64,000 nucleotides of DNA, taken from the NCBI GenBank assembly GCA_017395505.1, contig JAFPUH010000037.1, positions 59,226 to 123,225 on the forward strand, given 5' to 3'. Shown piece by piece: positions 1 through 37,533 of the stretch. The notes beneath the pieces are model-generated. The model had not been told where the DNA came from. It did not search any database and was given only the letters and a program-made list of their open reading frames with translations. Source of the stretch: Kiritimatiellia bacterium (GTDB lineage: Bacteria > Verrucomicrobiota > Kiritimatiellia > RFP12 > UBA1067). A program made the position numbers and the translations under genes. Position 1 is the stretch's first letter; every line of letters begins with the position of its first letter.

Positions 1-1927
1 GATGGCGCCGCCGGGCGAGAGCTTCTGGAACTTCGCCTCGATCTCGAGCTTCTTGAACGCATCGATCGGCTCTGTCACGTGGATGTGGTAGGAGTTCGTG
101 ATGTAGTTCTTGTCGGTAACGCCCTTGATGATGCCGAAGCGCTTCTGGAGGCACTTCGCGAACTTGTAGGTCGTGGACTCGAGCGGCGTGCCGTAGAGGG
201 AGTAGTCGATATCCTCGGCGGCCTTCCACTTCGCGGTGTACTCGTTGAGCTTCTGCATGACCTCAAGGCCGAACGCCTCGCCCTCCGGCTCGGTGAGCTT
301 CTTGCCGATCATCGCATAGACGCACTCCCAGAGGCCGGCGTAGCCGAGCGAGATCGTCGAATAGCCGCCGAAGAGCAGCTTGTCGATCTTCTCGCCCTTC
401 TGGAGACGCGCGAGCGCACCGTACTGCCAGAGGATCGGCGCGGCGTCGCTGGACGTGCCTTTCAGGCGCTCGTGGCGGCACTGCAGCGCCTTGTGGCAGA
501 GCTCGCAGCGCTCGCCGAAGATCTCCCAGAACTTCGCCATGTCGCCGTGGGCCGAGAGCGCGATGTCGACGAGGTTGATCGTCACGACGCCCTGGTTGAA
601 GCGGCCGTAGTACTTCGGCTTGCCAGGCTCGTAGTTGCCGGCGTTGGCGACGTTGTTGAAGCCGTTGCCAGAGCGGTCGGGCGTAAGGAACGAGCGGCAG
701 CCCATGCAGGTGTAGGTGTCGCCATGGCCGACCTCTTCACCCTTCGAGAGCTTGTACTCGCGCATCTTCTTCTCGCTGATGTAGTCTGGCACCATGCGCT
801 TCGCGGTGCACTTCGCGGCGAGCTCGGTGAGGTACCAGTAGGGAGTGCCCTCGCGGACGTTCTGCTCCTCCAGTACGTAGATGAGCTTCGGGAAGGCAGG
901 CGTCACATAGACGCCCTGCTCGTTCTTGACGCCGCGGATACGCTCGTTCAAGACCTCCTCGATCACCATGGCGAGGTCCTTGCGCTCTGCCTCGCTCCTC
1001 GCCTCGCCGAGATACATGAAGACAGTCACGAAAGGCGCCTGACCGTTCGTCGTCATGAGGGTGACGACCTGGTACTGGATGGTCTGAACGCCCTTCTGGA
1101 TCTCCTTGCGAACGCGCTTCTCGACGATCGTGTCAAAGGCCTCCTTCGACATCTGGACGCCAGCGAGCTGGCACTCCTCCTCGAAATCCTTGCGGATGGC
1201 CTGACGGGAAATCTCGACGAACGGCGCGAGGTGGGTGAGAGAGATCGACTGGCCGCCGTATTGGTTCGAGGCGACCTGCGCGATGATCTGCGTAGCGATG
1301 TTGCACGCGGTCGAGAACGACTTCGGCTTCTCGATCATCGTGCCGGAGATCACTGTGCCGTTCTGCAGCATGTCCTCGAGGTTGACGAGGTCGCAGTTGT
1401 GCATGTGCTGGGCATAGTAGTCCATATCATGGAAATGTATGATGCCCTCCTTGTGCGCCTGCACTACGTCGGTCGGCAGAAGCAGACGGGCCGCGACATC
1501 CTTCGAGACCTCGCCCGCCATATAGTCGCGCTGCACGGCGTTGATTGTCGGGTTCTTGTTCGAGTTCTCCTGCTTGACGTCCTCGTTGTTGCACTCGATG
1601 AGCGACATGATCTGCTCGTCGGTCGTGTTCGCCTTGCGCTTGAGTTCCTGCTTGTAGCGGTAGACGATGTACTTCTTCGCGATCTCGGTCGCGTTGAACT
1701 CCATGATCTTCGTCTCGACGACGTCCTGAATCTCCTCGACCGTCATAGCGCGGTCGCGAGCCTCGCAGACGCCTGCGACTTCCTCCGCGATGAGCTTGAT
1801 GCGGCCTTCGCTCAGCGCGTTCTTGTAATCCACGGCCTGGCTGGCCTTGCGGATGGCGTTCTCGATCTTGGTGATGTCAAACGGAACCTCCTGGCCGCTC
1901 CGCTTGATGATCTTCATCGCTTTCATG
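1..1927 (-). CDS. nrdD: Anaerobic ribonucleoside-triphosphate reductase (class III RNR), 5' portion; C-terminal end lies beyond the window start
   Basis: Manual minus-strand translation from ATG (rc of 1925-1927) gives MKAMKIIKRSGQEVPFDITKIENAIRKA... (ATP-cone) then ...GHGDTYTCMGCRSF...NYITNSYHIHVTEPIDAF... typical of NrdD. The six-frame track only reports the antisense + ORF 79..1947 because the real ORF runs off the window. Confidence 0.85.
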
Positions 1928-3526: not shown

Positions 3527-5260
3527 TCAGTTGAAGACCATTTCGCTCACCGGCTTTCCGGCCGGGATCATCGGATACACGTTCGCCCTAGGCTCGACGA
3601 TGACCTCGACTACAGTCGTCTTCGGCGAATTGATCGCCTTGGCGATGGTCGAGTCGAGCTTGGCCGGGTCGATTACGCGGTAGGCCTCGGCGCCGTGGGC
3701 CTCAGCGAGCTTTACGAAGTCTGGCAGGTAGTCGTAGTCGAGATCCTGTTCGAGATGCTCGTTGTTGGGACGCCCCTTCACGGTCAGTATCGAGCCGGAG
3801 TAGTTCTTCTTGTAGAAGAGCTCCTGCCACTGGCGAACCATGCCGAGGCAGCCGTTGTTGATGATGATGAAAGTTACGGGCAGCTTGTGCTCGACGGCGC
3901 AAACGACCTCCTCGAACGTCATCTGGGCTCCACCATCGCCGCATATCGCTACTGTCTTGTGGTCGGGTCTGGCGAACGCCGCGCCAATCGCGGCGGGGAT
4001 GCCGAAACCCATAGTGCCCATTCCGCCGGACGTGAGGAAGTGGCGCGGAATCGAATAGCGGAAATGCTGCGCCGCCCACATCTGGTGCTGGCCTACGTCG
4101 GTAACCACGACCGCCCTTCCCTCGGTCGCCTTGTCCACAGCTTCCATCACTGCCTGCGGCATGATTACGCCAGGGTGCATCTGGCTCCACGAGACGGGAT
4201 GCGACTTCTTCCAGCCGTCGATCTTGGCGATCCATTCAGGATGCGTCGCCGACTTTACGCGCGAAGATACGGTCGTCAGCACGTCCTTCACGTCTGCGAC
4301 GATGCCAAGCGCGACAGCCACGTTCTTGCCTATCGACGCGGGGTCGCAGTCGACATGCACGATCTTCGCATGCGGCGCATACTTAGAGATCTTGCCGGTG
4401 ACGCGATCCGAGAACCTGACGCCAAGTGCGATTATGAGATCGGCCTCATTCATCGCCCAGTTCGCGGCCGGGGTGCCGTGCATACCGGCCATCCTGAGCG
4501 AAAGCGGATCGCGCTCGTCGAAGCTGCCTAGACCCATGAGCGTAGTCGCCACGGGAATCCCCGCCTTGTGCGCGAGGGCCGCCACATCCTTCGCGGCGCC
4601 GCTCGCGACGACTCCGCCACCGGCGTATATCACTGGACGCTTCGCCTCGTTGATCATTCTGGCGAACCTGCTGAGCTGCGCCGAGGTGGCAGCGCTTTCG
4701 GGGTGGTATGCCCTGAGCGACACGCGCTCTGGATACTGCGCCGACGTAAGCGCCTGCTGGCAGTTCTTGGGAATGTCGATCACGACCGGACCTGGCTTGC
4801 CGTGGGTCGCGATGTAGAACGCCTGAGCGACGATCTCGGGTATCTCGTCGGCTGAATGCACGAGGAAGTTGTGCTTGGAGACTGCTCTGGTGACGCCTGT
4901 CGTGTCGGCCTCCTGGAAGGCGTCGGTGCCTATCAGGCTCATCGGCACCTGTCCCGTTATCACGATAAGCGGCACGCCGTCGATGTTCGCCGTGGCAAGG
5001 CCGGTGACGGTGTTGGTCGCTCCTGGACCTGAGGTCACGAGGCATACGCCTGGCTTCCCCGTCGAACGCGCATAGCCGTCGGCCATATGCACGCAACCCT
5101 GCTCGTGGCGGCCCAGCACAAAAAGGAACTTCGCGTCGGGCAGGCAGTTGAATATGTCTAGAGCCTGTCCACCGGGGTAGCCGAACAGAACCTCCGTTCC
5201 TGCCTTCGTGAGCGAATCAACCAGCGCCTGAGCACCGGTACGTGTTTCATTACGGTTCAT
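3527..5260 (-). CDS. ilvB: Acetolactate synthase large subunit (TPP-dependent)
   Basis: 577 aa; N-terminal TPP domain GYPGG, central FAD region, C-terminal TPP motif GDGG...NN. Typical AHAS. Confidence 0.9.
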   Translation of the reverse strand: MNRNETRTGAQALVDSLTKAGTEVLFGYPGGQALDIFNCLPDAKFLFVLGRHEQGCVHMADGYARSTGKPGVCLVTSGPGATNTVTGLATANIDGVPLIVITGQVPMSLIGTDAFQEADTTGVTRAVSKHNFLVHSADEIPEIVAQAFYIATHGKPGPVVIDIPKNCQQALTSAQYPERVSLRAYHPESAATSAQLSRFARMINEAKRPVIYAGGGVVASGAAKDVAALAHKAGIPVATTLMGLGSFDERDPLSLRMAGMHGTPAANWAMNEADLIIALGVRFSDRVTGKISKYAPHAKIVHVDCDPASIGKNVAVALGIVADVKDVLTTVSSRVKSATHPEWIAKIDGWKKSHPVSWSQMHPGVIMPQAVMEAVDKATEGRAVVVTDVGQHQMWAAQHFRYSIPRHFLTSGGMGTMGFGIPAAIGAAFARPDHKTVAICGDGGAQMTFEEVVCAVEHKLPVTFIIINNGCLGMVRQWQELFYKKNYSGSILTVKGRPNNEHLEQDLDYDYLPDFVKLAEAHGAEAYRVIDPAKLDSTIAKAINSPKTTVVEVIVEPRANVYPMIPAGKPVSEMVFN

Positions 5261-5274
5261 CTAATCCAATCGTC

Positions 5275-6837
5275 CTACTCTTCTTGCTTCTCTTCTTCTT
5301 GCTTCTTTTCTTCTGTTTCAGTTCCTTCGCAGCCGCAGTCAAACACGATGTCGGACGCGAGACCTCCGCCGAGCGAGCGGTAGAGGGCTATGAGGTCCAC
5401 CGTTATCTGTCCGCGCGAAACGGCCAGCTCCTCCTCGAGGTTGAGGCGGCTACGCTGCGCATCGAGAACGTTGTTGAAGTCCCTGAGGCCGTTCTTGTAG
5501 AGGTCCTGAGAAATCGTGACGGCATCGGTCGCGGCCTTTACCGCGCTGTTCAGCGCCTGATAGCGATGGTATTCGAGGGTGTAGGCGGAGTAGTTGTCGC
5601 GAACCTCAGCATACGCGCTCTCGAGAGCCAGCTCGTAGTTGAGGCGAGCCTCCTCGACCCTGGCCTCGGCAGCTTTGGTTCTGGCCACGACATTGCCGCC
5701 CTGAAGAAGCGGCCAGGAGATGGACGGGCCGATCGACGCATAGAAGCTGCCGGGCTGCGCGAATTTCGATGCCTGCACCGACTCGAGGCCAAGACCGCCA
5801 GTGATGAAGAGCTTCGGATACCACGCCGACTTGGCCACACCTACGCTCGCTACCTGCGCGGCGAGGGTACGTTCGGCGGCCTTTACGTCGGGACGCGACC
5901 TTATGAGATCCATCGGCAGCTCGGCCACCTTCTGCGGCGACATGAGCCAGTCGCGCCCGGGAACAGGCTTGAGAGTCTCATGCAGCTCGCCCGGAGTCTT
6001 TCCGGCGAGAATCGCAATCGCGTTCTTGAGAGCCTCCTCCTGCGCGAGAAGCTGGGGTATCCTCGCGCGAGTCTGCTCAACGATATAGGCGCACTGGTGC
6101 ACGGCCAGCTCGTCGCCAATGCCGGAGTCGAAGCGCGACTTGAGGATGTCGTATGTCTCGCTCTGCAGCTGAAGGTTGTTGCGGGCGACGGCTATGCGGT
6201 CCTGTATCGTCCTGAGAGTGATGTACTGCTGGCCAAGACGGGTCGTGAGCTCGACCCAAGCCTGTGCGACGCCCCAGCCAGCCGCCTCTGCCTTTGCGAG
6301 AGCCGCCTCGGTTGCGCGACGGTTGCCGCCGAATATGTCGATCTCCCACGACGCGTTGAAGCCGGCGTTGAACACGTCAAGCTGCCTGTGGCGGTATGCA
6401 CCCTGCACGCTGCGGTTGTTGCGGTGTGACTCGGTGCGCGTGGCGCTGCCGTCGATCGAAGCCTTGGGCGAGAACGCCGAAAGCGTGCCGATCATCTCCC
6501 ACTCGGCCTGACGCAGACGGCTGACCGCCGCCTTGAAGCTCAGGTTGTCGGCTATGGCGCACTCGACGAGTTCGGCGAGAACAGGATCGTTCAGCCTCTC
6601 CCACCAGCGGGCCATGAGATCCTCGGAAACTACGACGCGCTCGTCTGCCTCCGCCTCGGCAGTCTTGTACTCGCCGGTGCCGGAGAGCTCTTCGGTCGGA
6701 GAACCCGCGTCAGGCAGGGCGCAGACAGGCGCCTCGACCTCCGGCTCGGTGTAGTCCGGTCCGACGGACGGCAAGTTCATGCACCCCGTTGTGGCCGCAA
6801 GCGAAAAGACCGCAAACCTGTTGAGAACCTTCTTCAT
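5275..6837 (-). CDS. RND efflux outer-membrane factor lipoprotein (NodT/OprM family) with a C-terminal K/E-rich tail
   Basis: 520 aa; signal peptide plus lipobox (LAATTGC); OEP-type repeats; ends ...CEGTETEEKKQEEEKQEE. Confidence 0.9.
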   Translation of the reverse strand: MKKVLNRFAVFSLAATTGCMNLPSVGPDYTEPEVEAPVCALPDAGSPTEELSGTGEYKTAEAEADERVVVSEDLMARWWERLNDPVLAELVECAIADNLSFKAAVSRLRQAEWEMIGTLSAFSPKASIDGSATRTESHRNNRSVQGAYRHRQLDVFNAGFNASWEIDIFGGNRRATEAALAKAEAAGWGVAQAWVELTTRLGQQYITLRTIQDRIAVARNNLQLQSETYDILKSRFDSGIGDELAVHQCAYIVEQTRARIPQLLAQEEALKNAIAILAGKTPGELHETLKPVPGRDWLMSPQKVAELPMDLIRSRPDVKAAERTLAAQVASVGVAKSAWYPKLFITGGLGLESVQASKFAQPGSFYASIGPSISWPLLQGGNVVARTKAAEARVEEARLNYELALESAYAEVRDNYSAYTLEYHRYQALNSAVKAATDAVTISQDLYKNGLRDFNNVLDAQRSRLNLEEELAVSRGQITVDLIALYRSLGGGLASDIVFDCGCEGTETEEKKQEEEKQEE

Positions 6838-14770: not shown

Positions 14771-15064
14771 TCAGACGATCGTAAAGATGGAACTCATGCC
14801 CGTGATGTCGAAGACGCTCTTGACCATCTCGTTCGGGCTCACGATGGACATCTTGCCACCAGAGACCATCATCGCCTTCTGCGCACCCATGAGAACGCGT
14901 AGACCTGCGGACGAGATATATTCAAGATCGGCAAAGTCGAACAGTATCTCCGTTACGCCGTCAAGCTTAAGCTCGCCCTCAAGCTCCGGCGAGGTGTTGG
15001 TGTCGAGGCGCCCCTCGACCTTGAGCGTAAGGCATCCGTTTTCCAGTTTCTTCTCGATTTTCAT
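14771..15064 (-). CDS. STAS-domain anti-sigma-factor antagonist (SpoIIAA/RsbV-like)
   Basis: 97 aa; DLEYISSAGLRVL carries the conserved phosphorylatable Ser in a STAS fold. First gene of the operon; SD AAGGAA 8 nt before the ATG. Confidence 0.8.
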   Translation of the reverse strand: MKIEKKLENGCLTLKVEGRLDTNTSPELEGELKLDGVTEILFDFADLEYISSAGLRVLMGAQKAMMVSGGKMSIVSPNEMVKSVFDITGMSSIFTIV

Positions 15065-15102
15065 TTATGGTTTCCTTGTAGGCTAAATAGCAGTATGCTT
15101 TA

Positions 15103-15114
15103 TATATTATACCA
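15103..15114 (-). promoter_or_regulatory. Extended -10 promoter TGGTATAAT for the STAS / SBP / phosphatase-kinase operon
   Basis: rc of 15106-15114 is TGGTATAAT; about 34-nt leader with an SD. Confidence 0.5.
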
Positions 15115-15205
15115 AATTTGCCTCGTCTCGTGTGCTGGGAATTTTTGCAAAGACCACAAGGTAGGTGGACTCATGTACAGCCAAGAGCAAAATCCAGTTT
15201 CGCAT

Positions 15206-15380
15206 GGTTTGCGAAGTTGTTTTGGCAAAAATGGAGGTGGTAAGTATAGAAATATAGTATATATTAGATATATATTACTAATTATATTTTACACACAAAA
15301 ACAATTTCGCAACGCGCAGGGGGGTACCCTTATAACATGGCACACCCCATGCGAAGTTGGATTTTTGCGAAGTTGGATTT
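15206..15380. promoter_or_regulatory. Three copies of TGCGAAGTTG(G/T)(A/T)TTT (two in tandem at 15348-15380) plus a 60-bp AT-rich tract, upstream of the partner-switching operon promoter
   Basis: Direct repeats at about 15208-15223, 15348-15362 and 15367-15381. The AT-rich block 15241-15300 contrasts with the 65% GC background. Confidence 0.35.
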
Positions 15381-15386
15381 GCCCTG

Positions 15387-16010
15387 CTATGCGTTTACCC
15401 GCATATCCGCCCAGAGCTGTTCCTGTGCCTCGATGACGAGAAGCATCATTTCGCGGGTCGCGTCATCGATTTCGGCCGCTTCGTACCGTGCATTTGCGAT
15501 GTTGCCGAGCATGATCAGCGCCTCCGTCCACATCTCGTACGAGCAGGAGTCCTTCCTTTTGGCGAGTTTCGCACCTTCGAGAACGTATGCATCGAGCGCC
15601 GTTCGCACATCGCGCTGGAATACGCTCTCGTCGAAAAGCGTGTCGGTGTCGTTGGGGTCGTTCTCGTCGTCGGGGTCCTTGAGCCTGTATTCGAACGTCG
15701 CATCGAAGGCCATGACGAACATCACGACCTCCATGAGCTGGCGCTTGCTGTCGAATTCAAGCGGAAGGCGGCATACGCCGTTCGCGAGACTGTCGGAGTC
15801 CTCATTGATAGCCTTTAGAATGTGGCTCTTCACATTCTCGCGCCTTTCGGCGTCCAGTGAGGGATTCGCCGGCTGCCTGTCGTAGCCGAAGTAGAACATT
15901 TTCAGTATGGGACGCCAGAAGTCGTCCGTCCTGCGCTCCTTTGCGGCCTCCCAGTCAAGGACTTCGCCGTCGGTTCTCTGCGTCTTGCCAATGAAATCGA
16001 GCGTCTTCAT
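15387..16010 (-). CDS. Hypothetical acidic protein (207 aa), downstream partner of the P-loop protein
   Basis: ORF with a 4-nt overlap (16007-16010) to the upstream gene. No recognisable family. Confidence 0.5.
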   Translation of the reverse strand: MKTLDFIGKTQRTDGEVLDWEAAKERRTDDFWRPILKMFYFGYDRQPANPSLDAERRENVKSHILKAINEDSDSLANGVCRLPLEFDSKRQLMEVVMFVMAFDATFEYRLKDPDDENDPNDTDTLFDESVFQRDVRTALDAYVLEGAKLAKRKDSCSYEMWTEALIMLGNIANARYEAAEIDDATREMMLLVIEAQEQLWADMRVNA

Positions 16011-17779
16011 TTCGCGTTCCCCTTCTTTATGACGTATTTGGTGCCCTTTCCGTTCGAGCCGATTCTATGGAGTATCGTCACCTCGTCGCGATCTTCGAGG
16101 GTTTCCTCTATCTTGTCCATCTCGAACTTGGTGACATGCAGCCCCTTTGTGATTTCCGAGCGCATCACTCCCGCGTCGCCTGCCTTGCGGATCATGCGGA
16201 TCGCGGCGAGCACCTTCTCGTCCGTCTCGTTTGTCGCCGCGTAGTCTCGCGCCATCTGCAGCATGCGGCCCTGGATCGCCTTGACGAGCGCCCACGCCCA
16301 GCGGACGCCCTCGACGGAGATAACCGGCCTTTCGATGTCGGCGCTGATCGCGTGCAGGAGCGCGAGCTTGAGGACCAGTTCGACCGAACGTCCCCACACC
16401 GACTCCTCCATCGCGTCGCCCGCCGCCTTTTCGTAGAGCGCGTCCGACTCGTCGGAGACCTTGCGAGCCTCCTCCTCGGCTTCCGGCGACATCTGCACGA
16501 GATACGGCTGTATAGGCCCCCTGTCGCCCGCAGGCGGGGGCATCGCCGCAAGCCGCGACACCTTGTCGGTCACGAAATACGGCACGGGGTTCGCCTCCAG
16601 CCCCGACTTGAAGTTGTCCTTGCTGCGGGGCCCCGCCTCGAATACGAGGCAGCGCCCGAGAAGTCCGCCCGTAAGCGCGCGCTGGCTGAGGGCGCTGTAG
16701 AAGTTGCTCGGCGTCGCTGTCGCGAACATCGAGAAAGAGGGCTTTACGATGTCCTCTCGGCCCTGCGGCTTGTTGGGGCCGGCGGCCTTGGCGCGCGTCG
16801 TGTGGATCGAGCCGGACGACGTGAAGATGCTCAGCATCAAGCGCCAGAGGGATTCCGTCGCCGAGCTGCTGTTGCGGTCGCTCTTGAGCTCGCGAAGCAC
16901 CGAGTCGTACTCGTCGAACTGGCAAAGGAGCGTCGGCGAGTTGAGGAGCGCATCCTCGAGGCCCTGTCCAGAGGCGACGTTCTGTATGACGGACGACGAC
17001 ATGCGGACGTTCGCGGCGAGGTTCTTTATCACCTTTCGGGGGTGGTCCTTGCCGGTCGCGGAGCCGGCGAGCGCGATTATGTAGAGGTTTGGGTATGCGT
17101 CGCGGGGGCCGACGAACTTGCGTCCCGCCAGGTGGGCGAGGAACACGAGCGAGCCCGCGAAGGAAAGCACGCGATTCGGACGGTGGGCCGAGAGCATCAT
17201 GTATTCGGTGAGCTCGTTCACGAAGCCGGGCACATTGAGGAGCGACTCGTCGATCGCGCCCTGGTTCTGGGGCGAGGACGCCTTCTCGGGGGCCGGCGCG
17301 GCCTCGTCGCCGCAGGGCGGCAGGGTGATGGTCGAGATCATGTCTCGAGCGGCCGTGTAGCGGCTCGTCACCTCCTCGTTGAGCGCGGAAAGCGCAAACT
17401 GGCGGGCCTCGAAGGACGGGAAGCTCCGCATGTTGATGTCTTCGGTGCCGCGCCTGAGGTCGCGCTCGCACACGACGGACACGAACTCGCGGAAGTCGGT
17501 GCGAATCGTGGCGGTACTCGCCGCGAGGCCATTGAAGAAGTCCAGAAACCCGTCGTCGGCCAGCTCCGGCATGCTCTTTACGGCCGCAACGCCGCGTACT
17601 ATGGCGTCTTGGCTCGTTTCGTTCATAAGCGCACGGAAAGCGGCGCTTCGGCTGTCGCTCGAGAAATAGCTGTTCTCAATTCCGATCCGCTCGACAAGGA
17701 GTTTCGCCTGCCGCGCGAACTGCACAAGATGAGACAGCACCGCATACTCAAGCCGCTCTTCTTTGGTGATGTCTTTCAT
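16007..17779 (-). CDS. P-loop NTPase-like protein resembling the DUF3987 / VirE (phage-plasmid primase C-terminal-like) family, with a C-terminal winged-helix-like region
   Basis: 590 aa from the internal ATG at 17779. The longer track ORF to 17959 would read through the REP-like repeat. Deviant Walker A LYIIALAGSATGKD and Walker-B-like LLCQFDEYD. TGGTATAAT sits 8 nt upstream of the ATG, suggesting a leaderless transcript. Confidence 0.55.
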   Translation of the reverse strand: MKDITKEERLEYAVLSHLVQFARQAKLLVERIGIENSYFSSDSRSAAFRALMNETSQDAIVRGVAAVKSMPELADDGFLDFFNGLAASTATIRTDFREFVSVVCERDLRRGTEDINMRSFPSFEARQFALSALNEEVTSRYTAARDMISTITLPPCGDEAAPAPEKASSPQNQGAIDESLLNVPGFVNELTEYMMLSAHRPNRVLSFAGSLVFLAHLAGRKFVGPRDAYPNLYIIALAGSATGKDHPRKVIKNLAANVRMSSSVIQNVASGQGLEDALLNSPTLLCQFDEYDSVLRELKSDRNSSSATESLWRLMLSIFTSSGSIHTTRAKAAGPNKPQGREDIVKPSFSMFATATPSNFYSALSQRALTGGLLGRCLVFEAGPRSKDNFKSGLEANPVPYFVTDKVSRLAAMPPPAGDRGPIQPYLVQMSPEAEEEARKVSDESDALYEKAAGDAMEESVWGRSVELVLKLALLHAISADIERPVISVEGVRWAWALVKAIQGRMLQMARDYAATNETDEKVLAAIRMIRKAGDAGVMRSEITKGLHVTKFEMDKIEETLEDRDEVTILHRIGSNGKGTKYVIKKGNAK

Positions 17780-17820
17780 GGCTACTATTATACCAAAAAT
17801 GGCGAGACGGTGCGTCGCAC

Positions 17821-18030
17821 AGGTCCCGGCGGGCAAGGCGTCAAAGTCCCAGGACCCCAGACTATTTTGCCCTGCCACTTTTCGTATTGGAGTCCCAGGA
17901 CCCCAGACGTCAAACCCCCAGGACTTTGACCCCTTGGGTCCTAGGACTTCACACCTCAAAGTCCTAGGACTTCATACCCCAAAGTCCTAGGACTTTGCTC
18001 GCCTCTCCGCGTGACCCCTTCAAGCCGCCT
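17821..18030. repeat. REP-like intergenic element, copy A (about 210 bp) with three GTCCTAGGAC palindromes; homologous to 58599..58760
   Basis: Alignable to copy B from AGGTCC(C/A)GGCGGGCAAGGCGTCAAAGTCCC through GACTTTGCTC.CCT.CCGCGTG. Several nested inverted repeats. Confidence 0.8.
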
Positions 18031-18043
18031 CGAAGAACCACTT

Positions 18044-18071
18044 TCCGCACCATATTTGCAAATATGGTGCG
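18044..18071. repeat. Perfect 28-bp palindrome CCGCACCATATTTGCAAATATGGTGCGG
   Basis: Seen directly in sequence. It sits 26 nt past the stop of the 18097..20262 gene and is not followed by a T-tract. Confidence 0.8.
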
Positions 18072-18096
18072 GAATTCTAACGCCCGTAATATTACG

Positions 18097-20262
18097 CTAT
18101 GGCATTTCGACCGTCACCTTGAAGAACCGATGAAGCGAATTGGTCGGATACGCCCATTCCTCAGTAGACGATAGCGTCTCCTTGCCATATATCTTGTAAA
18201 GCCGTTCAATGCTATTCGTGTTCAAGTTCGGCTCCCATGTCACAACTGGCACGCCATCTTGCATGTCTATCTTCGCCGTAAACACGCTCGTTTCATTCGT
18301 CGGGTTTGTTCCGGCCACAAACTCTTCCCAAAGTCTCGTCGCCTTCCCGCCCTGCGTCTTGCCGCTCAAGGCAATCGCCGTTGTCTCGAAGTCAGTATCC
18401 TTGCCATCAAAACCGTATTTCGTCAACCACGAATACGGCACGGGTTCTGGTGTGGTCATTGTGAAGCCACTACCGTCGGCAGGCGCCCACTGCACCTGAT
18501 CAACCCAAATGCAGTCTGGCGCATACGAAGTCGCGCCATCCTTGCGGTATTCCCATTTGAGCGTATGCTTGCCGCCTCCCACAATTTCATGCGAGACATA
18601 ATGCCATTCGCCATCATGGCCGGCAATCCTCGCCACAACCACATCATCTACCAAGAAAGCACCATAATCATAGTAACCGTCGTCCCCTTCTTCCTCATCG
18701 GCTTCTTCGCACGCCGCTCTCCACCAGAACGACACCTTACCGTCCTTCTTAATCGAAGATTGCAGCCATGTAGTCTCGTTATTGCCAATCGTACCACTCT
18801 GCACGGACGACACGCCGTCATGCGAAACGTCCGTCACAACGGTCCAGGGATGCGAGTCATCCGTCTCCATCGTGTAACCGTAGAAATTCGCCGCCTCGCT
18901 CAAAGACTCACTTCGCGTGAAGGTCGCCGTAGCCTCTTCCGAATCCTTCCAATCATCCTTGACGGCAATCGCCCGCACGCTGCAAGATTGATAGATGCCG
19001 AAAGGATGCTTGTACTCGCGCCCATTCACCGCTGGGTCGCCCCCGTCAACCGTGTAGAGTATCGTCGCTCCTTCAGTCTCGCACGAAATCGAAACTGCCT
19101 GTGAAACATTGTCAAAGGTTATCCCGCTTGGTTCGATAACTGGTCGCTCAACAGTATACCACTCGCGCGTAAACGTCGCCGTCGCAGTTTCGCTATCAAA
19201 CCAATCCTCCTTAAATGCTTTGGCCTTAACCGTTGTTGTGTCGTCAATTGCAAACGGTCCTGTGTAGAGCGCACTCTTCTCCGTCGGTTCACTCCCATCA
19301 AGCGTATAATGAATCTCGACACTATCGGTTTCACAAGAAAGCGTCACTATGTTGCCGGCCCAATTGAACACATTCTCTTCTGCGGATATGTTCGGCTCGA
19401 CTGCTTGACCAAACGCATACTCATTCGAGTAAACGACTTGATATGGATATTCGGCAACATACGCCAATGCCTTGACTTGTACCCGATGGGTTATCGAAAA
19501 CGGGCCTTCATACAGGAAACATTTTGCGGTTTGATTTGTAGTCGGCTCGCTCCCGTCAATCGTATAATAAATTTTTGCGGTATCATTTGCTGATGTCAAA
19601 ACAACTTTTCTGTCTTCAGCAAGCACGCCGTCAGCTGGAGCAAAGTTCACTTTTGCGGCTCCATAATCCACCGCGCCCATGAGCCATGTTTCACCTTCTA
19701 CCCAGTCTTCGCATCCCTCAACCGCCATACATCCATTACCTTGAGAGTAATTGAAGCGTCCCGTGCAGCTACATTCGCGGCCGCCGGCACTCCAACTAGA
19801 TGAAATAGTGGTTGCTGGTTTTAAGCCTTCAAACATGATATTTACTGTATTTTTGATGGGATAAACCCACCAGCCTCGCCATGTATCATAATAATTATGA
19901 TCCCTGAGACTTGCCCTCGAAAAAAATGAGCTTCCATTTGTTGCGATTCTTAAAACGGTTGAAGGGACTATTACGGCCGTCACATCCGAATCATCAGGTA
20001 TTTTGATAGCACCTACCCCAATACCAACTACTGGCATACCATCAATCATAGATGGCAATCTTAATACCTTTGGCAGCGCTCCACTATGGGCGGGCAATGG
20101 ACTATTGGACTCATTAGGAACCATTGTTCGTGTGGAGGGATTCTCCAAAACAACGCCATCTTTATCTTCATAATAATACCAAGTGATTCCTTCTATGGTT
20201 TGTGTCAGAGCAAAGACACTGCTGGTGATCCCCGCAAATATCAAGACTAACATGCTTTTCAT
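18097..20262 (-). CDS. Secreted or cell-surface protein with a BspA-like leucine-rich region and four chitobiase/beta-hexosaminidase C-terminal-type (Fn3-like) repeats
   Basis: 721 aa with signal peptide. Repeated IYYT(I/L)DGSEPT / ILYTVDGGDP modules. Markedly lower GC than the flanks. Confidence 0.75.
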   Translation of the reverse strand: MKSMLVLIFAGITSSVFALTQTIEGITWYYYEDKDGVVLENPSTRTMVPNESNSPLPAHSGALPKVLRLPSMIDGMPVVGIGVGAIKIPDDSDVTAVIVPSTVLRIATNGSSFFSRASLRDHNYYDTWRGWWVYPIKNTVNIMFEGLKPATTISSSWSAGGRECSCTGRFNYSQGNGCMAVEGCEDWVEGETWLMGAVDYGAAKVNFAPADGVLAEDRKVVLTSANDTAKIYYTIDGSEPTTNQTAKCFLYEGPFSITHRVQVKALAYVAEYPYQVVYSNEYAFGQAVEPNISAEENVFNWAGNIVTLSCETDSVEIHYTLDGSEPTEKSALYTGPFAIDDTTTVKAKAFKEDWFDSETATATFTREWYTVERPVIEPSGITFDNVSQAVSISCETEGATILYTVDGGDPAVNGREYKHPFGIYQSCSVRAIAVKDDWKDSEEATATFTRSESLSEAANFYGYTMETDDSHPWTVVTDVSHDGVSSVQSGTIGNNETTWLQSSIKKDGKVSFWWRAACEEADEEEGDDGYYDYGAFLVDDVVVARIAGHDGEWHYVSHEIVGGGKHTLKWEYRKDGATSYAPDCIWVDQVQWAPADGSGFTMTTPEPVPYSWLTKYGFDGKDTDFETTAIALSGKTQGGKATRLWEEFVAGTNPTNETSVFTAKIDMQDGVPVVTWEPNLNTNSIERLYKIYGKETLSSTEEWAYPTNSLHRFFKVTVEMP

Positions 20263-20627
20263 ACTCTTTCTCCTTTCGTAGAATCTGTGATAATGATATG
20301 CGTGCCATAAGGTGCACCTCGTTTTTGAAGTTCCATCTTAATGTTCAATTTATGCCATTCACAATACCTCTTAAGTTCCTCGAATTCTTCTAGTCCGTCG
20401 AAGGCTCCGCTTCCGTGATGCCGAGAGATGAAGCAAACATCACCAGTCGTTGTATAACCAACAGTGGCATGATCAAGAAACTTCAAATTCTTACAAGAAC
20501 CAAATATGCTTTTTTGTAAGCAACCCCTTGGGCACCGGCCGCCACGCAAAACCAGAGCTGGGCAACCAGAATGATAAGTCTTAATCTCCTTGCCGTCTGG
20601 TAAGGAATAAATGTATGGTTTTGACAT
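20259..20627 (-). CDS. Small Cys/His-rich hypothetical protein (122 aa), translationally coupled upstream of the surface protein
   Basis: 4-nt overlap with 18097..20262. Motifs SGCPALVLRGGRCPRGC and HATVGY..ISRHHGSG. Possibly a papain-like or C39-like fold, unproven. Confidence 0.45.
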   Translation of the reverse strand: MSKPYIYSLPDGKEIKTYHSGCPALVLRGGRCPRGCLQKSIFGSCKNLKFLDHATVGYTTTGDVCFISRHHGSGAFDGLEEFEELKRYCEWHKLNIKMELQKRGAPYGTHIIITDSTKGERV

Positions 20628-20852
20628 CTATCAGTATCTCCTTTCGCCTGCCGCTACCTAGTTTGTGAGATGAGCACCGGTGGCAAAAGATAAGCGGCGC
20701 ACTCTCAAGATTCACATCTTCTGGAGGCACCGGAAAGAGCCCGAAGTAAAACATGATTAGAAAGTACGCCGCGTGGATACCACGCAGCGCAACTTCGTAT
20801 TTCGCCTTACTCCTTGAAAATTTCCGGTTTTCCAGAAAGCTACTATACGCTG

Positions 20853-21036
20853 TTGCGTACGTTGCACGGGTTAGGTTGCCCACCCCGCGCTTTTCTCCAC
20901 TCCACTTCACCCGAAGTGTGGGAGCTACGGCCGGCTTTTCTGCCCGACCGGTATGTCAAAGAACCTTGCCCTTCTCGCGAAGGAACGGCGAATATGATAC
21001 CATATCGCCGCGCTCATTTCAAGCGCGGCGAGAGGG
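20853..21036 (-). repeat. About 185-bp repeat R190, copy 1: GC-rich structured segment ending in a hairpin (TCGCCGCGC-TCATTTCAA-GCGCGGCGA) immediately followed by TGGTATCAT
   Basis: More than 95% identical to 21616..21797. The 3' 50 nt also occur at 23121..23170 and, diverged, at 58836..58878. Confidence 0.85.
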
Positions 21037-21063
21037 AAATTAGTTTTCGAAATTCTGTGCCTA

Positions 21064-21312
21064 CTACACCCGAACACCATATTCATATATGGCATCACTC
21101 GGCAAATCTATTCTATCGCTCCAAACAACGCATGTCCGACTTGAATCAAGCCGCGCATTCTCAAACAACCCAGGCAATGTGCGCAAGTCTTCAAACGCCT
21201 TTATTGTGCTGATATCATCGGCGACGTCATATACCACATCCCGCCCCTCGTCAAAATGGACGAAGAGTTTGTAATCTGGCAAGGTCTTAATACTTGATAT
21301 CCTGCGTATCAT
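21064..21312 (-). CDS. DUF2442 family protein
   Basis: 82 aa with the characteristic ...VVWSDRIDL....LY C-terminal pattern. Forms the usual pair with DUF4160. Confidence 0.65.
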   Translation of the reverse strand: MIRRISSIKTLPDYKLFVHFDEGRDVVYDVADDISTIKAFEDLRTLPGLFENARLDSSRTCVVWSDRIDLPSDAIYEYGVRV

Positions 21313-21324
21313 AGCTTAGCCCTA

Positions 21325-21576
21325 TCAAAGCGGTGGCAGCTTCACTATCCGCTGTGTCTTCCACATTTCTTCCAGTTCGCCTCTGTGCAACGACAACCAT
21401 TCCTTGACAAGTCGCTGCGCAGTCAATGGCAAATCTCCATCCGTCATTTCGGACGAAGCCAAATCAAACACTCCGACGCACTCGCCATAAATGGCATGTA
21501 TGTGCGACGGATCATGTTCTTTAGGCTTAAAGAACATCTTAACGACTATACCATAAAATCTTGCAATCTCTGGCAT
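21325..21576 (-). CDS. DUF4160 family protein
   Basis: Starts at internal ATG 21576 (MPEIARFYGIVVKMF...HIHA.YGE...) with SD GGAGGG 8 nt upstream. The track ORF to 21630 is an upstream extension. Confidence 0.65.
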   Translation of the reverse strand: MPEIARFYGIVVKMFFKPKEHDPSHIHAIYGECVGVFDLASSEMTDGDLPLTAQRLVKEWLSLHRGELEEMWKTQRIVKLPPL

Positions 21577-21615
21577 TTTAAATGCCCTCCTTTCTTTCCG
21601 ATGGTCTATTCTAAA

Positions 21616-21797
21616 TTGCGTACGCTGCACGGGTTAGGTTGCCCACCCCGCGCTTTTCTCCACTCCACTTCACCCGAAGTGTGGGAGCTACGGCCGGCTT
21701 TTCTGCCCGACCGGTATGTCAAAGAACCTTGCCCTTCTCGCGAAGAACAGCGAATATAATACCATATCGCCGCGCTCATTTCAAGCGCGGCGAGAGG
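21616..21797 (-). repeat. About 185-bp repeat R190, copy 2 (hairpin plus TGGTATTAT at its upstream end); precedes the DUF4160/DUF2442 cassette
   Basis: Near-identical to 20853..21036; ends 40 nt before the DUF4160 ATG. Confidence 0.85.
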
Positions 21798-21850
21798 TCA
21801 AAATCTCATTCCTTCAGTGGGCTCGGAGTAATGCGCAAATCCGGCTGCAA

Positions 21851-22051
21851 TCACTTTGAACGAATACAGTTGTAAAGATATTCGCCACTTTCACGGTAAA
21901 GTCCCGACTCAGGGTCTATCAGCTTAGTGAAGAATGCAGAATGATAAACCTCGTCCATGGCATCTTCAGGCGACTTACCCTCATGTGCGACAATCGCCGC
22001 AATCAAGTCCTGTATCGCAAACTCGATAAGCTGCTTCTGCTCATTTGACAT
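21851..22051 (-). CDS. DUF3791-like small protein
   Basis: Internal start MSNEQKQLIEFAI...SPEDAMDEVYHSAFFTKL resembles the DUF3791 N-terminal region. Overlaps the DUF3990 3' end. Confidence 0.5.
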   Translation of the reverse strand: MSNEQKQLIEFAIQDLIAAIVAHEGKSPEDAMDEVYHSAFFTKLIDPESGLYRESGEYLYNCIRSK

Positions 22052-22538
22052 TGAGCACCTCCTTGAAGCGAAGCAACTTGACGGCACGTTCGGTATGGAA
22101 TGAATACTGCGTATAAAGCTCCTTGAACTTCATGCGCTGCGCAAACTCATCAACCGTAATCAAATCCTTTTCATACAAACGAAACAGCAACGAGAGTTTG
22201 TCGTTCGCAATAGGACCGACAACAACATCATACCGATTGTCACGATTGTGGTCTTCCGCTGGCTGATCAATCTTTCTGTTTGCCTTTACAAAAAGCGCCC
22301 ATTCACGACACGGCTCAGCAAACTTTTTCACATTCAAGGAATCAAAAACGCCATCATCCGCTTCAAACACCATGACCTTAGGCACGCCTCCTAGCCGGAC
22401 GACTCTTTGGCGAGCAGTCTTCTCTGCGCACTCAAGCGAACTTGTCGCATAAAAGCCCCGTCCAAAATCTTTAGCCGGCAGACCTTTGGCAAGGTCGATT
22501 TCGCAAAATCCCAGATTTGACCCATGGTAAAGCTTCAT
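22041..22538 (-). CDS. DUF3990 family protein
   Basis: MKLYHGSN...DFGRGFYATSS matches the hallmark N-terminus of DUF3990. Confidence 0.7.
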   Translation of the reverse strand: MKLYHGSNLGFCEIDLAKGLPAKDFGRGFYATSSLECAEKTARQRVVRLGGVPKVMVFEADDGVFDSLNVKKFAEPCREWALFVKANRKIDQPAEDHNRDNRYDVVVGPIANDKLSLLFRLYEKDLITVDEFAQRMKFKELYTQYSFHTERAVKLLRFKEVLNVK

Positions 22539-22795
22539 GCGGCGACACCTCCGTTCCTGCGAGCGACTTGGGCCATATCAGCGACCGCTTCTTCAATCGA
22601 ATATGTGTGTTCAATATCGTAGTGGTCGGAAAGAAACGAAAGCGCACCATGTTTCTTCAAATAGTCGAACGCTTCCAGATATGACATACCATATGTGTCC
22701 GCAAAATCATTCACGCACACCACAAAGTAGTCAATCTTGTTTTTCGTCAATTCTGGCATGACAATCCATTTCTTTTGAGCTAATGATTCTGCCAA
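22535..22795 (-). CDS. DUF3791 family protein
   Basis: ...DYLKKHGALSFLSDHYDIEHTYSIEEAVADM pattern typical of DUF3791. ATGA overlap with DUF3990. Confidence 0.6.
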   Translation of the reverse strand: MAESLAQKKWIVMPELTKNKIDYFVVCVNDFADTYGMSYLEAFDYLKKHGALSFLSDHYDIEHTYSIEEAVADMAQVARRNGGVAA

Positions 22796-22804
22796 GGTCC
22801 CTGT

Positions 22805-23104
22805 TCATACGGCAACAGCCTCCTTGCACACACGATGCGCAAAACCAAGCGAATGCGGCAATATATGCGACGATACCAGATCAACCTTGCAGTTGAACAG
22901 TTTCTCATACTCCGACGACATAGCACATTCGTTGCGCCAACTGTATTCGCCTGGCATCCACTTCACCAAGAAATCCACATCGCTGTCGGGACGCTCCTCC
23001 TTGCGGGCGCACGAGCCGAAGACCCAAAGCTTTTCGGCCTTGTGCTTCCTGGCGATGGCGTATATCTCGTCACGCCTCGCCCGTATCTCGTCAAGCATGC
23101 ACAT
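22805..23104 (-). CDS. Minimal nucleotidyltransferase (MNT / Pol-beta superfamily), no cognate HEPN partner seen
   Basis: Start MCMLDEI... (ATG at 23104 or 23098). GS-x9-DxD motif in LWVFGSCARKEERPDSDVDFLV. Confidence 0.7.
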   Translation of the reverse strand: MCMLDEIRARRDEIYAIARKHKAEKLWVFGSCARKEERPDSDVDFLVKWMPGEYSWRNECAMSSEYEKLFNCKVDLVSSHILPHSLGFAHRVCKEAVAV

Positions 23105-23120
23105 ATTTGCAACATCCCGA

Positions 23121-23170
23121 AGGAACACCGATATGATACCATATCGCCACGCGCGAATCAAGCGCTGAAC
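23121..23170 (-). repeat. R190 3'-tail fragment (hairpin plus TGGTATCAT) at the right boundary of the low-GC island
   Basis: CGAAGGAACACCGATATGATACCATATCGCCACGCGCGAATCAAGCGCTG aligns to the last 50 nt of R190. GC composition returns to the flank level immediately to the right. Confidence 0.7.
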
Positions 23171-23172
23171 GA

Positions 23173-24318
23173 TCAGGAGAAAGTCTTTGCGTAATCGGAG
23201 TAGATAGCGGCCGCGTCAAGGTCCGACCGTGCCATTCTGAAGGCGTTTGCGCCGCATTTCGCAGTGTCGAGCGAACTGAGCGTTCTCACGAGACTTGCGG
23301 CATCGGATGCGCGGTATAGGGCGCCGGCCTCATGGCGGGCGAGCAGCTTGGCGCTTTCGCCGCCGAGGGAGCTGACGACCGCAAGCGATGCTTTGGCATA
23401 GTCGCAGAGCTTGTAAGGTACGCCGACGCAGCTTGAATCGTCCATCGGTATCATGCCGACGTTGCAGCCGGCGAACATGCGCGAAAGCTCCTCTTCGCCA
23501 AGATAGCCCCTGAAGCGAACGCGCGACGAAACGCCAAGCCCTTCCGCAAGCTGGCGCAGCGCCCCTTCTCCTTCTCCCTTTCCGGCGATGTCTAGCGTTG
23601 CGTCAGGCAGTTCTGCGAGAGCGCTCACGACTGTTGCGAGGTCGTATGTCCGGCCGAGATTTCCGGCGTATGCGAGGCGCAGCGCGCCATCATCCTTACG
23701 GACGACAGCAGAAGCGCCGGACATGTCGATGCCGTGGTAGAACCTGCGAACTTCGCCCTTGAAACCGTAGCCGCGAACGAGATCGATGTAGCGGTCTGCT
23801 ACGACGGTTATCGCGTCCGCACCGAGGTAGTTCGCTCGGGCGAGGCGGCGAAGCGGCCATAGCGCCGCCTTGGGAGCGACGCGCTCGAACGTCTCTGGCC
23901 ACGCATCCATGACATCAATGACGAGCTTGGCGCCGAATTTCGCTGCGAGACGGCGAGCGACGAGTCCTGTCGAGAGCGGAGGAGTCGAGACGACGATCAG
24001 ATCAGGGGCGCCATTCTTTTTCGCCGCGGCTTGGGCGAGGCGCGACCATTCGCGCGAATAACGCCAGTGGCTGATCATGCGGCCAAGCGAGACGTTGGCG
24101 GAATAAGGCGGCTCGTGCACCAGGCGAAGCGCGAAACTAGGCGGCTCTCCTGCTATGGCGCGGCGTGTCTTTGTCGTATGGTTGAAGTCGGCCGTCCAGA
24201 GGGTCACTTCATGCCCCGCGCGCGCAAAAGCCTCCGCCATGAGCCAATACCGCTGGGGACGAAAACCCTCCAGCGGAAGGTTGTCGAAGGGATTCTCTAT
24301 CCAGACGCGCAAATTCAC
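23173..24318 (-). CDS. Glycosyltransferase family 4 (RfaG-like)
   Basis: GTG start overlapping the der stop (GTGA). N-terminus ...GFRPQRYWLMAEAFARAGHEVTLWT and C-terminal E-x7-E region typical of GT4. The track extension to 24816 overlaps der and is rejected. Confidence 0.75.
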   Translation of the reverse strand: MNLRVWIENPFDNLPLEGFRPQRYWLMAEAFARAGHEVTLWTADFNHTTKTRRAIAGEPPSFALRLVHEPPYSANVSLGRMISHWRYSREWSRLAQAAAKKNGAPDLIVVSTPPLSTGLVARRLAAKFGAKLVIDVMDAWPETFERVAPKAALWPLRRLARANYLGADAITVVADRYIDLVRGYGFKGEVRRFYHGIDMSGASAVVRKDDGALRLAYAGNLGRTYDLATVVSALAELPDATLDIAGKGEGEGALRQLAEGLGVSSRVRFRGYLGEEELSRMFAGCNVGMIPMDDSSCVGVPYKLCDYAKASLAVVSSLGGESAKLLARHEAGALYRASDAASLVRTLSSLDTAKCGANAFRMARSDLDAAAIYSDYAKTFS

Positions 24319-37504: not shown

Positions 37505-37533
37505 CGGTAGTGATTATACCATAAATGGACAAA

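Follow-up and report, generated by a model that had tools for sequence, protein, structure and literature searches.

In P4, the alpha protein unites helicase activity and origin binding in a single polypeptide through a winged helix, and additionally carries a primase domain. P4 possesses two separate repeat-bearing cis sites (ori and crr), and its replication is modulated by the small regulator Cnr. The Rep proteins of the Staphylococcus pathogenicity islands (SaPIs) are self-loading initiator-helicases (PMC9371898). AgaPH, a PriCT-DUF3987 protein of an MGE, has also been shown to be a Walker-dependent helicase that unwinds DNA with ATP (PMC11724360). Here, we describe a two-gene operon and its flanking repeats within a 64-kb stretch of DNA from a PVC-group bacterium, probably a gut or rumen member of Kiritimatiellota (hereafter the window, meaning the whole stretch that was analysed), in which positions 15180–18028 probably constitute a replication module that is complete in itself and belongs to a mobile or island-type element, as judged from sequence comparisons and structural models. 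The features of the locus, with positions counted along the window, are as follows.

17820–18028, minus strand: REP-A array, about eight repeats (period 23 bp; palindromic core GTCCYAGGAC)
17780–17800, minus strand: promoter region, with the extended −10 box TGGTATAAT at 17787–17795
16007–17779, minus strand: open reading frame of the 590-aa DUF3987 P-loop helicase, with its ATG at 17777–17779
17315–17779, minus strand: helicase aa 1–155, a novel, all-helical N-domain (AF2 model)
Helicase aa 158–174, minus strand: disordered linker
Helicase aa ~180–515, minus strand: AAA+/DUF3987 ATPase core, with Walker A and Walker B inside it
~17045–17073, minus strand: Walker A, ALAGSATGKD
16904–16924, minus strand: Walker B, QFDEYD
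~16028–16231, minus strand: helicase aa 517–584, C-terminal winged helix (AF2 model)
15387–16010, minus strand: open reading frame of the 207-aa partner
15180–15386, minus strand: origin-like region directly after the partner gene, with iterons and an AT-rich stretch
15366–15375, 15350–15359 and 15210–15219: direct CAACTTCGCA iterons
15302–15311 and about 15194–15204: inverted copies of the CAACTTCGCA iteron
58598–58760, minus strand: REP-B, a solitary array 90% identical to REP-A, lacking 46 bp

Both open reading frames lie on the minus strand at the positions given in the preliminary description, and the translational coupling that it claimed between the helicase gene and that of a small protein of unknown fold is borne out by an ATGA overlap at 16007–16010. 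A longer, TTG-initiated helicase frame reaching 17959 was rejected; it only reads across the repeat array, and the homologues begin with MKDITK. The box TGGTATAAT lies 7 nt ahead of the helicase ATG and a Shine-Dalgarno sequence is absent, a geometry that fits the leaderless transcript proposed earlier, from which a leaderless helicase mRNA is predicted. The same promoter geometry is kept in three related loci (L015, L012 and L001). Since TGGTATAAT occurs eight times in the window against 0.05 copies expected, always upstream of minus-strand genes, it is taken as the general promoter box of the organism; for two further copies in the window, the distance to a start codon is likewise 7–8 nt. 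A direct repeat of 12 nt, TATTATACCAAA (at 15105 and at 17786), was considered as a target-site duplication and discarded, being the eight-copy host promoter box itself, with positions that fall off the homology boundaries. An Rfam search of 14900–23300 returned no match.

The assignment of the 590-aa protein to the C-terminal, DUF3987 type of primase-helicase, which travels with mobile elements, is upheld by a Pfam DUF3987 (PF13148) match over aa 340–501 (38.7 bits against a gathering cut-off of 27) and by the recurrence of near-identical units in three unrelated contexts; the label 'VirE-like' or 'VirE-type' is unsupported, since Pfam gave no match to VirE (PF05272). The protein matches PHROG 3022, annotated 'DNA primase', with an E-value of 1.5e-61, over the C-terminal part of the profile only, and 329 phage records align solely with aa ~175–585; the PHROG and phage matches begin at aa ~130–185. 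Longer relatives bear a PrimPol domain (PF09250); a Pfam search of aa 1–153 found no domain in this protein and hence no primase domain. The residues G243, K244, D289 and E290 are invariant among 18 family members, and the position behind the Walker lysine is occupied by D, N or T throughout the family, which identifies the deviance of Walker A as a conserved trait.

The AF2 model of the helicase (pLDDT 85) revealed, as top PDB matches in Foldseek, MCM, RuvB, ORC/Cdc6, AAV Rep40 and DnaB. In the model, the winged helix is formed by helices at 518–564 and a beta hairpin at 567–584, and its profile matches RPC34/RPC6 (E 0.006). Its predicted recognition helix is acidic, and iteron reading by the winged helix is therefore doubtful. 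The N-domain is modelled as six short helices and a long helical hairpin, a topology like that of the N-terminal domain of DnaB. Alignment of the two with hhalign superposes an E-x-x-VL...F...R..F motif at a probability of just 1%, profile comparisons of the two were not significant, and neither Pfam nor PDB contained a sequence match for the N-domain; a DnaB-like N-domain is offered as a conjecture. The 590-aa protein as a whole is best read as an initiator-helicase of the MCM-like AAA+ type, an activity that we infer from its sequence and model.

The 207-aa partner is all-helical (AF2 model with pLDDT 79 and pTM 0.78) and, in the window copy, acidic, with a pI of 4.51. Fold searches in PDB and BFVD found no match for it, and no primase-like match emerged from Pfam and fold searches. 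Its family is an orphan, with only 87 cluster representatives among 1.84 billion proteins. The longer relatives of about 570 aa were considered as a lead; they contain internal duplications, carry no Pfam domain and gave no clue to function. The partner is present in every module: among complete loci (those extending past the helicase gene), it accompanies 21/21 helicases that bear the new N-domain, and it occurs in 0 of the other ~156 helicase loci. As the N-domain and the partner are always inherited together, they probably act jointly.

Within the origin-like region, a stretch of 92% A+T at 15242–15291 is bracketed by direct and inverted iterons. The window holds three exact copies of CAACTTCGCA, all inside 170 nt of this region. 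Folded as single-stranded DNA, its nested inverted repeats reach a z-score of −4.8. The layout of iterons around an AT-rich centre recurs in all 10 related modules with enough sequence, and the iteron sequence is element-specific in each of them. In L001, whose helicase is 90% identical, all five iteron copies are altered in concert, reading CAACGTCACA versus CAACTTCGCA in the window, and the AT-rich core is kept. This concerted change between elements may indirectly point to specific binding of its own iterons by the initiator. To assign iteron specificity, the substitutions that separate the window from L015 or from L001 were mapped; the winged helix varies even among elements with identical iterons, and the iteron switch is tracked by the N-domain as well as by the partner. 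The origin-like region, the most informative feature of the locus, lies just outside the interval covered by the preliminary description and was missed there, as were the lack of a primase domain, the tight linkage of N-domain and partner, and the link of the 'REP' to the helicase family.

The segment 15180–18028 is 95% identical in L015 and its core, 15207–17799, is 87% identical in L001, with unrelated flanks in both cases. A housekeeping NTPase in a conserved chromosomal context, the outcome that would have spoken against the original assignment, is thus not what was found. An identical protein (P0017) occurs in two contexts, the exact helicase lies in the same chromosomal context in four long contigs, and the compact unit is present across many genomes and contexts. 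The neighbours of the module are often TA and RM genes; beside it lie TA-like genes at 18–23 kb in the window, Dcm, EcoRII, Vsr and TA genes in L001, and an Eco57I-type methylase with a T5orf172 protein in L006; L043 has Abi_2 as a neighbour. The window copy is chromosomal, and plasmids gave a single weak match to the module. No integrase, transposase, excisionase or relaxase was found around the module in the window or in related loci, nor was AlpA or a terminase found among the called genes there. Terminal overlaps indicative of circularity were seen in none of the 182 fetched contigs, a count in which short metagenome contigs cannot exclude circles, and a comparison for att-like repeats between the origin end (~15180) and the distal edge of the low-GC island (~23170) found no shared 9-mer. 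The segment 15180–18028 would be a replication cassette of about 2.8 kb belonging to a mobile element and placed at differing chromosomal sites in related gut bacteria; given the lack of an integrase and of a circular contig and the constant context in four contigs, its autonomy and current mobility are putative.

REP-A begins at 17820, 40 nt upstream of the helicase ATG and directly upstream of the promoter, and so abuts the operon as first described. Its core, GTCCYAGGAC, has 11 matches against 1.3 expected, and TRF assigns the array a period of 23. It is conceivable, if doubtful, that such an array has no functional relation to the operon and is a dispersed host repeat of the REP/BIME type that happens to be a favoured point of insertion or recombination. 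This explanation draws on REP-B, which makes two array copies in 64 kb, 40.7 kb apart and one of them solitary. The 46 bp absent from REP-B equal two repeat units, and a degenerate promoter copy follows it; it has neither helicase nor partner nor origin beside it, and tblastn detected no decayed second gene copy nearby. A similar solitary array is found in L249, a JGI contig, upstream of a 345-aa gene. The gene beside REP-B has the same length, 345 aa. Furthermore, L001 has no array upstream of the helicase and a different one past the conserved unit, and covariation of the array with helicase or partner is absent, its sequence being the same in L012 (helicase 61% identical) and different in L001 (90% identical).

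Against a host repeat stands the distribution of the arrays. In 1.23 Mb of PVC loci, 13 of the 14 arrays with a period of 19–27 nt have a helicase or partner gene no more than 700 nt away (P ~3e-13), and all of the arrays found in that range have a period of 22–23 nt. By blastn, the GTCCTAGGAC array family adjoins modules only, save for REP-B and the weaker match in L249. The REP-A array likewise precedes the helicases of L015 and L012, whose contexts differ, and in all seven cases read (the window, L015, L012, L001, L043, L045 and L055) a promoter or start codon follows directly downstream of the array. A metagenome scan for arrays with the 23-nt pattern found nothing, and a looser palindrome pattern retrieved 120 mostly unrelated metagenomic loci, the only related one being L249. 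REP-A is therefore likely to be a cis-acting array of the module, whether operator, iteron, copy-control or centromere-like, and 'REP' appears to denote a class of 22–23-bp arrays that tracks the helicase family rather than a generic host REP. Since a solitary array exists, the array could also be a target or junction instead of a working part.

If the segment is the replication module that we consider probable, the 590-aa protein would most likely form a hexamer on the origin that directly follows the operon, and this initiator-helicase would melt and unwind the origin much as the self-loading Rep proteins of SaPIs do, with the AT-rich stretch between the iterons as the unwinding element. The PrimPol domain of the phage relatives would here be replaced by the helical N-domain, always inherited with the partner, and the two may recruit host primase, determine which origin is recognised or regulate copy number. 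As no primase is encoded, primers would have to come from transcripts or from a primase of the host. A probable second cis-acting site would be the array of 23-bp palindromes that precedes the leaderless promoter.

A further proposal, which we hold to be unlikely, envisages a new kind of integrase-less 'replicon cassette' of PVC bacteria that moves from one chromosomal site to another, perhaps by way of its own origin or at or beside the 22–23-bp arrays, and that, once fired, over-replicates the adjacent variable TA/RM/Abi island in situ, the N-domain and partner coupling the MCM-like helicase to host priming in a new way. If this were true, such in-situ over-replication would amplify the adjacent TA, RM and Abi genes or ready them for transfer.

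The same locus had earlier been described as a possible remnant, and an inert leftover of a long-integrated prophage, satellite or plasmid, replicating nothing now, would indeed lack integrase and packaging genes, keep a stable location, as seen across the four long contigs, and leave no circular forms among the 182 contigs; the solitary REP-B, with its decayed promoter, also shows that such pieces decay. However, both genes of the operon are intact and under purifying selection, with dN/dS of 0.12–0.29 (0.23–0.29 for the helicase and 0.12–0.24 for the partner), the catalytic residues are invariant, the non-coding cis-acting origin is conserved, with repeats that change in concert and show no decay, and the same compact unit occurs in many genomes and contexts, all of which makes a remnant quite improbable. 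A two-gene anti-phage defence system, likewise put forward earlier, with the helicase as sensor or effector and the acidic protein as modulator, is in keeping with the variable, low-GC or defence-rich DNA beside the module in the window, L001, L006 and L043 but is very improbable, since no PADLOC model matches either protein (0 families), no nuclease or other effector domain is present, the closest relatives are phage replicative primase-helicases, and every member examined has an attached iteron/AT-rich origin with element-specific repeats, for which a defence system has no need.

Hardly any work exists on the mobile elements of Kiritimatiellota and other PVC bacteria of gut and rumen, and genetics in these organisms lacks a replicon. 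As a candidate replicon, the module would be compact (2.8 kb) and well delimited, and its specificity determinants are clear; shuttle vectors could be built from the iteron switch that nature provides between the window and L001. The apparent exchange of PrimPol for a new domain and a separate partner bears on how MCM-like MGE helicases are supplied with primers. The 22–23-bp arrays mark modules and could serve to find more of them. In addition, the module would exemplify replication functions spreading over chromosomal sites without a recognisable recombinase, beside defence and TA cargo.

Among known systems, the PICMI satellites (PMC10803314) have in common with the module a minimal size and a DUF3987 protein for replication; they are defined by an integrase, AlpA and Fis, none of which is present in the module. 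More generally, PICI, PICMI and P4-like satellites are recognised by an integrase together with Stl or AlpA and mostly by packaging or capsid-redirecting genes, a set that the module does not contain. The PrimPol- and PriCT-DUF3987 primase-helicases (AgaPP/AgaPH, PMC11724360; AEP survey, PMC5862659) possess a homologous core with both conserved Walker motifs and a small domain at the C-terminus, and share the association with mobile elements. In contrast to them, the module lacks PrimPol (PF09250) and PriCT; the first ~150 residues of its helicase form a new helical domain, complemented by the 207-aa partner, and the AEP/PrimPol or Toprim domain by which bifunctional primase-helicases are recognised is found neither in the protein nor in the operon. 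Compared with P4 alpha, the helicase of the module has no primase domain and belongs to another helicase family, and the two cis sites of the module carry unrelated repeats; no similarity was found between Cnr and the partner. Iteron plasmids of the R6K, RK2 and pPS10 type (PMC4980987) likewise have repeats spaced by ~22 bp beside the rep promoter and an AT-rich unwinding element, whereas here an AAA+ helicase takes the place of a WH1-WH2 Rep, and the unit is chromosomal, with no circular form observed.

The SaPI/PICI Rep-ori systems (PMC9371898) resemble the module in the order of protein domains (N-domain, AAA+ ATPase and C-terminal winged helix, the latter order being taken here from the model), in an origin that directly follows the replication genes, and in opposed short iterons of element-specific sequence on either side of an AT-rich centre. 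Unlike these systems, the module has no integrase, repressor, primase or packaging gene nearby, contains an extra conserved partner gene between helicase and origin, and uses iterons of 10–11 nt instead of the 5–6 nt in SaPI. It also differs in its PVC-group host, its DUF3987 family and its upstream 23-bp array. Current ideas are not overturned; rather, the logic of the SaPI/PICI type would now include a new phylum as well as a new architecture.

The helicase gene (590-aa product) and the adjoining partner gene (207-aa product) overlap on the minus strand and, together with a repeat array, a promoter and an origin-like region, make up a compact module. Its features, along with a second copy of the array, are arranged as follows:

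15180-15386: origin-like region, the 207 nt that follow the partner stop codon, at which the preliminary description ended
15387-16010, minus strand: partner ORF, 207 aa, from the ORF call
17777-17779 (ATG) to 16007-16009 (stop), minus strand: helicase ORF, 590 aa, from the ORF call
17787-17795, minus strand: -10 box TGGTATAAT, 7 nt before the helicase ATG
17820-18028: REP-A, the array upstream of the helicase gene, about 8 units, 23-bp period, palindrome GTCCYAGGAC
58598-58760: REP-B, a solitary array, 90% identical to REP-A and two units shorter

The translational overlap proposed earlier is present as an ATGA shared by both ORFs. A longer TTG-initiated frame reaching 17959 was rejected as the helicase start, as it traverses only the upstream repeats and the homologues start with MKDITK. 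No ribosome-binding site precedes the helicase ATG. The box TGGTATAAT, with eight copies in the window where 0.05 are expected, each of them upstream of a minus-strand gene, is the organism's general promoter box; since two other minus-strand copies (37513-37521 and 44345-44353) also lie 7-8 nt from the ATGs of ORFs starting at 37504 and 44337, leaderless transcripts may be common in this organism. A 12-nt repeat at 15105 and 17786, which seemingly flanks the operon, was dismissed as a target duplication because both copies are promoters.

The helicase scores over the Pfam cut-off for DUF3987 and is placed by its sequence in that helicase family, as the preliminary description had suggested; the VirE-like kinship suggested alongside found no match. 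The deviant Walker A motif is genuine, and the deviation itself is conserved across relatives as A-x-S-x-x-G-K-[D/N/T], while the Walker B Asp-Glu pair is invariant among the aligned relatives. PHROG families annotated as "DNA primase" are hit strongly (E 1.5e-61), the aligned part being only the C-terminal half of the profiles, and 329 phage genomes, whose matches are annotated as primase, PrimPol or helicase, align only with residues ~175-585 at 22-29% identity. In longer relatives (750-820 aa; from Planctomycetes, Lentisphaerae and viral contigs), the N-terminus is a PrimPol domain, PF09250. A PriCT-DUF3987 protein was demonstrated to be a Walker-dependent helicase that acts with a PrimPol in an integrative element (PMC11724360). 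The predicted structure of the window's helicase (pLDDT 85) comprises four parts:

aa 1-155: N-domain, all-helical, with six short helices and a long helical hairpin
between N-domain and core: disordered linker
third part: AAA+ core
C-terminal part: winged helix

The top PDB fold matches of the model are MCM, RuvB, ClpX, ORC/Cdc6, AAV Rep40 and DnaB, and in sequence profile the C-terminal winged helix is similar to RPC34. The N-domain has no sequence match in Pfam or PDB; topology and a motif alignment hint at a likeness to the DnaB N-terminal domain that is not significant.

The partner gene lies directly 3' of the helicase gene, overlapping or adjacent, in all related loci whose contig runs past the helicase gene. 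Of 178 loci that encode a helicase of this family, 21 have the partner; these are precisely those in which the helicase carries the N-domain, bar one further such locus, whose 1.9-kb contig stops short of the partner gene. The partner family is small (87 cluster representatives among 1.84 billion proteins), and the six-helix model of the protein (pLDDT 79, pTM 0.78) has no fold match in PDB or viral models. The description of the partner as a small acidic protein holds in the window (pI 4.5) and does not extend to the family, in which pI ranges from 4.5 to 9.3. The dN/dS values of both genes are 0.12-0.29, and purifying selection acts on both. In five related proteins of ~530-577 aa (P0145, P0158, P0160, P0161 and P0174), two tandem partner domains are joined to a basic C-terminal extension; none of the five has a Pfam domain.

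The origin-like region contains three exact copies of CAACTTCGCA, the only exact ones in the 64-kb window, and two inverted variants; these iterons, the short repeats of the region, bracket a 50-nt stretch of 92% A+T in a genome of ~60% G+C. Folded as single strands, the nested inverted repeats reach a z-score of -4.8. Iterons and an AT-rich stretch are found 3' of the partner gene in 10/10 related modules with enough sequence, and the repeat differs per module:

L001: CAACGTCACAA
L012: ACAGCACAA
L004: GAACTTTCACA
L006 and L016: ATCCAGATTCGCA
L017: CCAAGTACGCA
L018: CCAAGTTCCC
L019: GACCACAAGTAG

When the window is aligned with L015 and L001, the window and L001 differ in all five iteron copies, at the same two positions each time, and the AT-rich core is nearly unchanged, a pattern that reads as the signature of a protein-read site with switched specificity. 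The layout matches that of the SaPI Rep-ori, in which short iterons lie directly downstream of rep in opposite orientations on either side of an AT-rich centre; there, a self-loading helicase reads them through its C-terminal winged helix (PMC9371898). Some modules have a tandem pair of origin-like units, each with an AT-rich core and its own flanking iterons (L006 12383-12730, L016 12392-12730, L012 6930-7190). The AT-rich cores of distant modules have a common motif, ATATAATTA...ATATATACTATA, conserved beyond the need of a simple unwinding element.

REP-A-type arrays precede the helicase gene in the window and, in unrelated contexts, in L015 (helicase 96% identical) and L012 (61%). L001 (90%) has no array upstream; arrays follow the origin in L001 (CCCTAGGGG, 23-bp period) and L017 (seven CCCGTAGGGG units). 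These differing positions would fit a circular ancestor that was opened at different points. Distant helicase-only relatives have CGGATATCCG, CGGGTACCCG or CAATGCATTG arrays with 22-bp spacing after the iterons and before the next gene, the one for an HU-like protein in L043 and L045. Among 87 non-redundant PVC loci (1.23 Mb), there are 14 arrays with a 19-27-nt period, all of 22-23 nt, and 13 of them are no more than 700 nt away from a helicase or partner gene, a zone that makes up 8.9% of the sequence (binomial P ~3e-13; 12/13 without the window's own array, a manual addition to the set). Because of this enrichment, and since the array stands directly upstream of a promoter or start codon in all cases read, we regard it as a probable part of this module type; possible roles are operator, copy-control site and centromere-like site. 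REP-B is followed by a decayed promoter copy, with the helicase, partner and origin absent there, and a comparable solitary array in a JGI contig lies upstream of a 345-aa gene, the length of the gene beside REP-B. Since such solitary copies exist and the array sequence does not co-vary with helicase or partner, the array may also be an insertion or recombination point.

Several further repeats were observed. The sole array of this period not adjoining a module (L015 4955-5075, 22-nt unit ATTTATCGCGACAAATCACAAC, 4.7 copies) is 5 kb away from the helicase, beside a copy of a 183-nt dispersed repeat. Full copies of the latter in the window (20853-21035 and 21616-21797) are 98% identical, and partial copies occur at 23115-23165, at the far edge of a low-GC island, and at 58826-58878, ~65 nt from REP-B; the copy in L015 lies at 5152-5306. 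With its minus-strand promoter-like TTGAAA-17 nt-TGGTATCAT, this is perhaps a small mobile repeat that carries a promoter. Just past the decayed promoter of REP-B, the direct repeat CCCTCCCACAGCGGGA occurs twice (58440-58500, minus strand). The mini-modules L043 8617-12332 and L045 7930-12348 comprise a 416-440-aa helicase lacking N-domain and partner, iterons, a 22-bp palindrome array and the HU-like gene (PF14848); that of L043 has an Abi_2 gene on one side and adenylate kinase on the other.

The module occurs as a unit of 2.8 kb at differing chromosomal sites in gut bacteria that are Kiritimatiellota-like by the MAG names of related modules. The window shares 15180-18028 with L015 at 95% identity and 15207-17799 with L001 at 87%, and nothing beyond those limits. 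It derives from contig k141_189394 of ENA assembly ERZ27256806; L176 matches it at 100% identity over 20.3 kb, and four long contigs have the exact helicase at one and the same chromosomal position. In a more distant type (P0017), an identical protein occurs in two upstream contexts, and the downstream variant diverges within the AT-rich part of the origin. Identical modules on two contigs (L009 ~2879, L006 12478) likewise split exactly within the AT-rich centre, a hint that recombination or insertion takes place at the origin itself. Contigs assembled from short reads are interrupted at both the iterons and the array, which fits a repeated or variable element without proving one. Neither the surroundings of the module in the window nor any related locus was found to contain an integrase, transposase or relaxase, and no circular contigs were found. 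Directly upstream lies the low-GC island (18097-23170; G+C 0.46-0.53 against ~0.60), which encodes a secreted 721-aa protein with CHB_HEX_C/Fn3_assoc repeats and small genes with DUF4160, DUF3990, DUF3791 and NTP_transf_2 (nucleotidyltransferase) domains that look like toxin-antitoxin pairs. A perfect hairpin with a 14-bp stem (TTCCGCACCATATTTGCAAATATGGTGCGGAA, 18043-18074, minus strand), immediately behind the 721-aa gene, 15 nt beyond the outer end of REP-A, is likely a terminator dividing this gene from the module.

Judging from the family, the fold and the SaPI precedent, a helicase hexamer would form at the iteron-flanked AT-rich element, open it and unwind the DNA. As PrimPol is absent, priming would have to be borrowed from elsewhere. 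The N-domain and partner, always co-inherited in PrimPol's place, are the obvious pair to recruit a primase, determine origin specificity or control copy number, which we propose with low to moderate confidence. Since its palindromes lie two helical turns apart beside the promoter, the array is probably bound by a dimeric regulator on one helix face.

The preliminary proposal of a two-gene defence candidate is not upheld, as neither protein was recognised by PADLOC as part of a defence system; neighbours of the module are often toxin-antitoxin, restriction-modification or Abi genes. PICI, PICMI and P4-type satellites have integrase, regulator and, for most, packaging genes, and bifunctional primase-helicases carry a primase; the module lacks all of these and thus belongs to neither class. 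It probably works like a SaPI/PICI Rep-ori module, and combines a primase-less initiator-helicase that has a new N-domain with an obligate orphan partner, a putative origin of switched specificity and the characteristic array.
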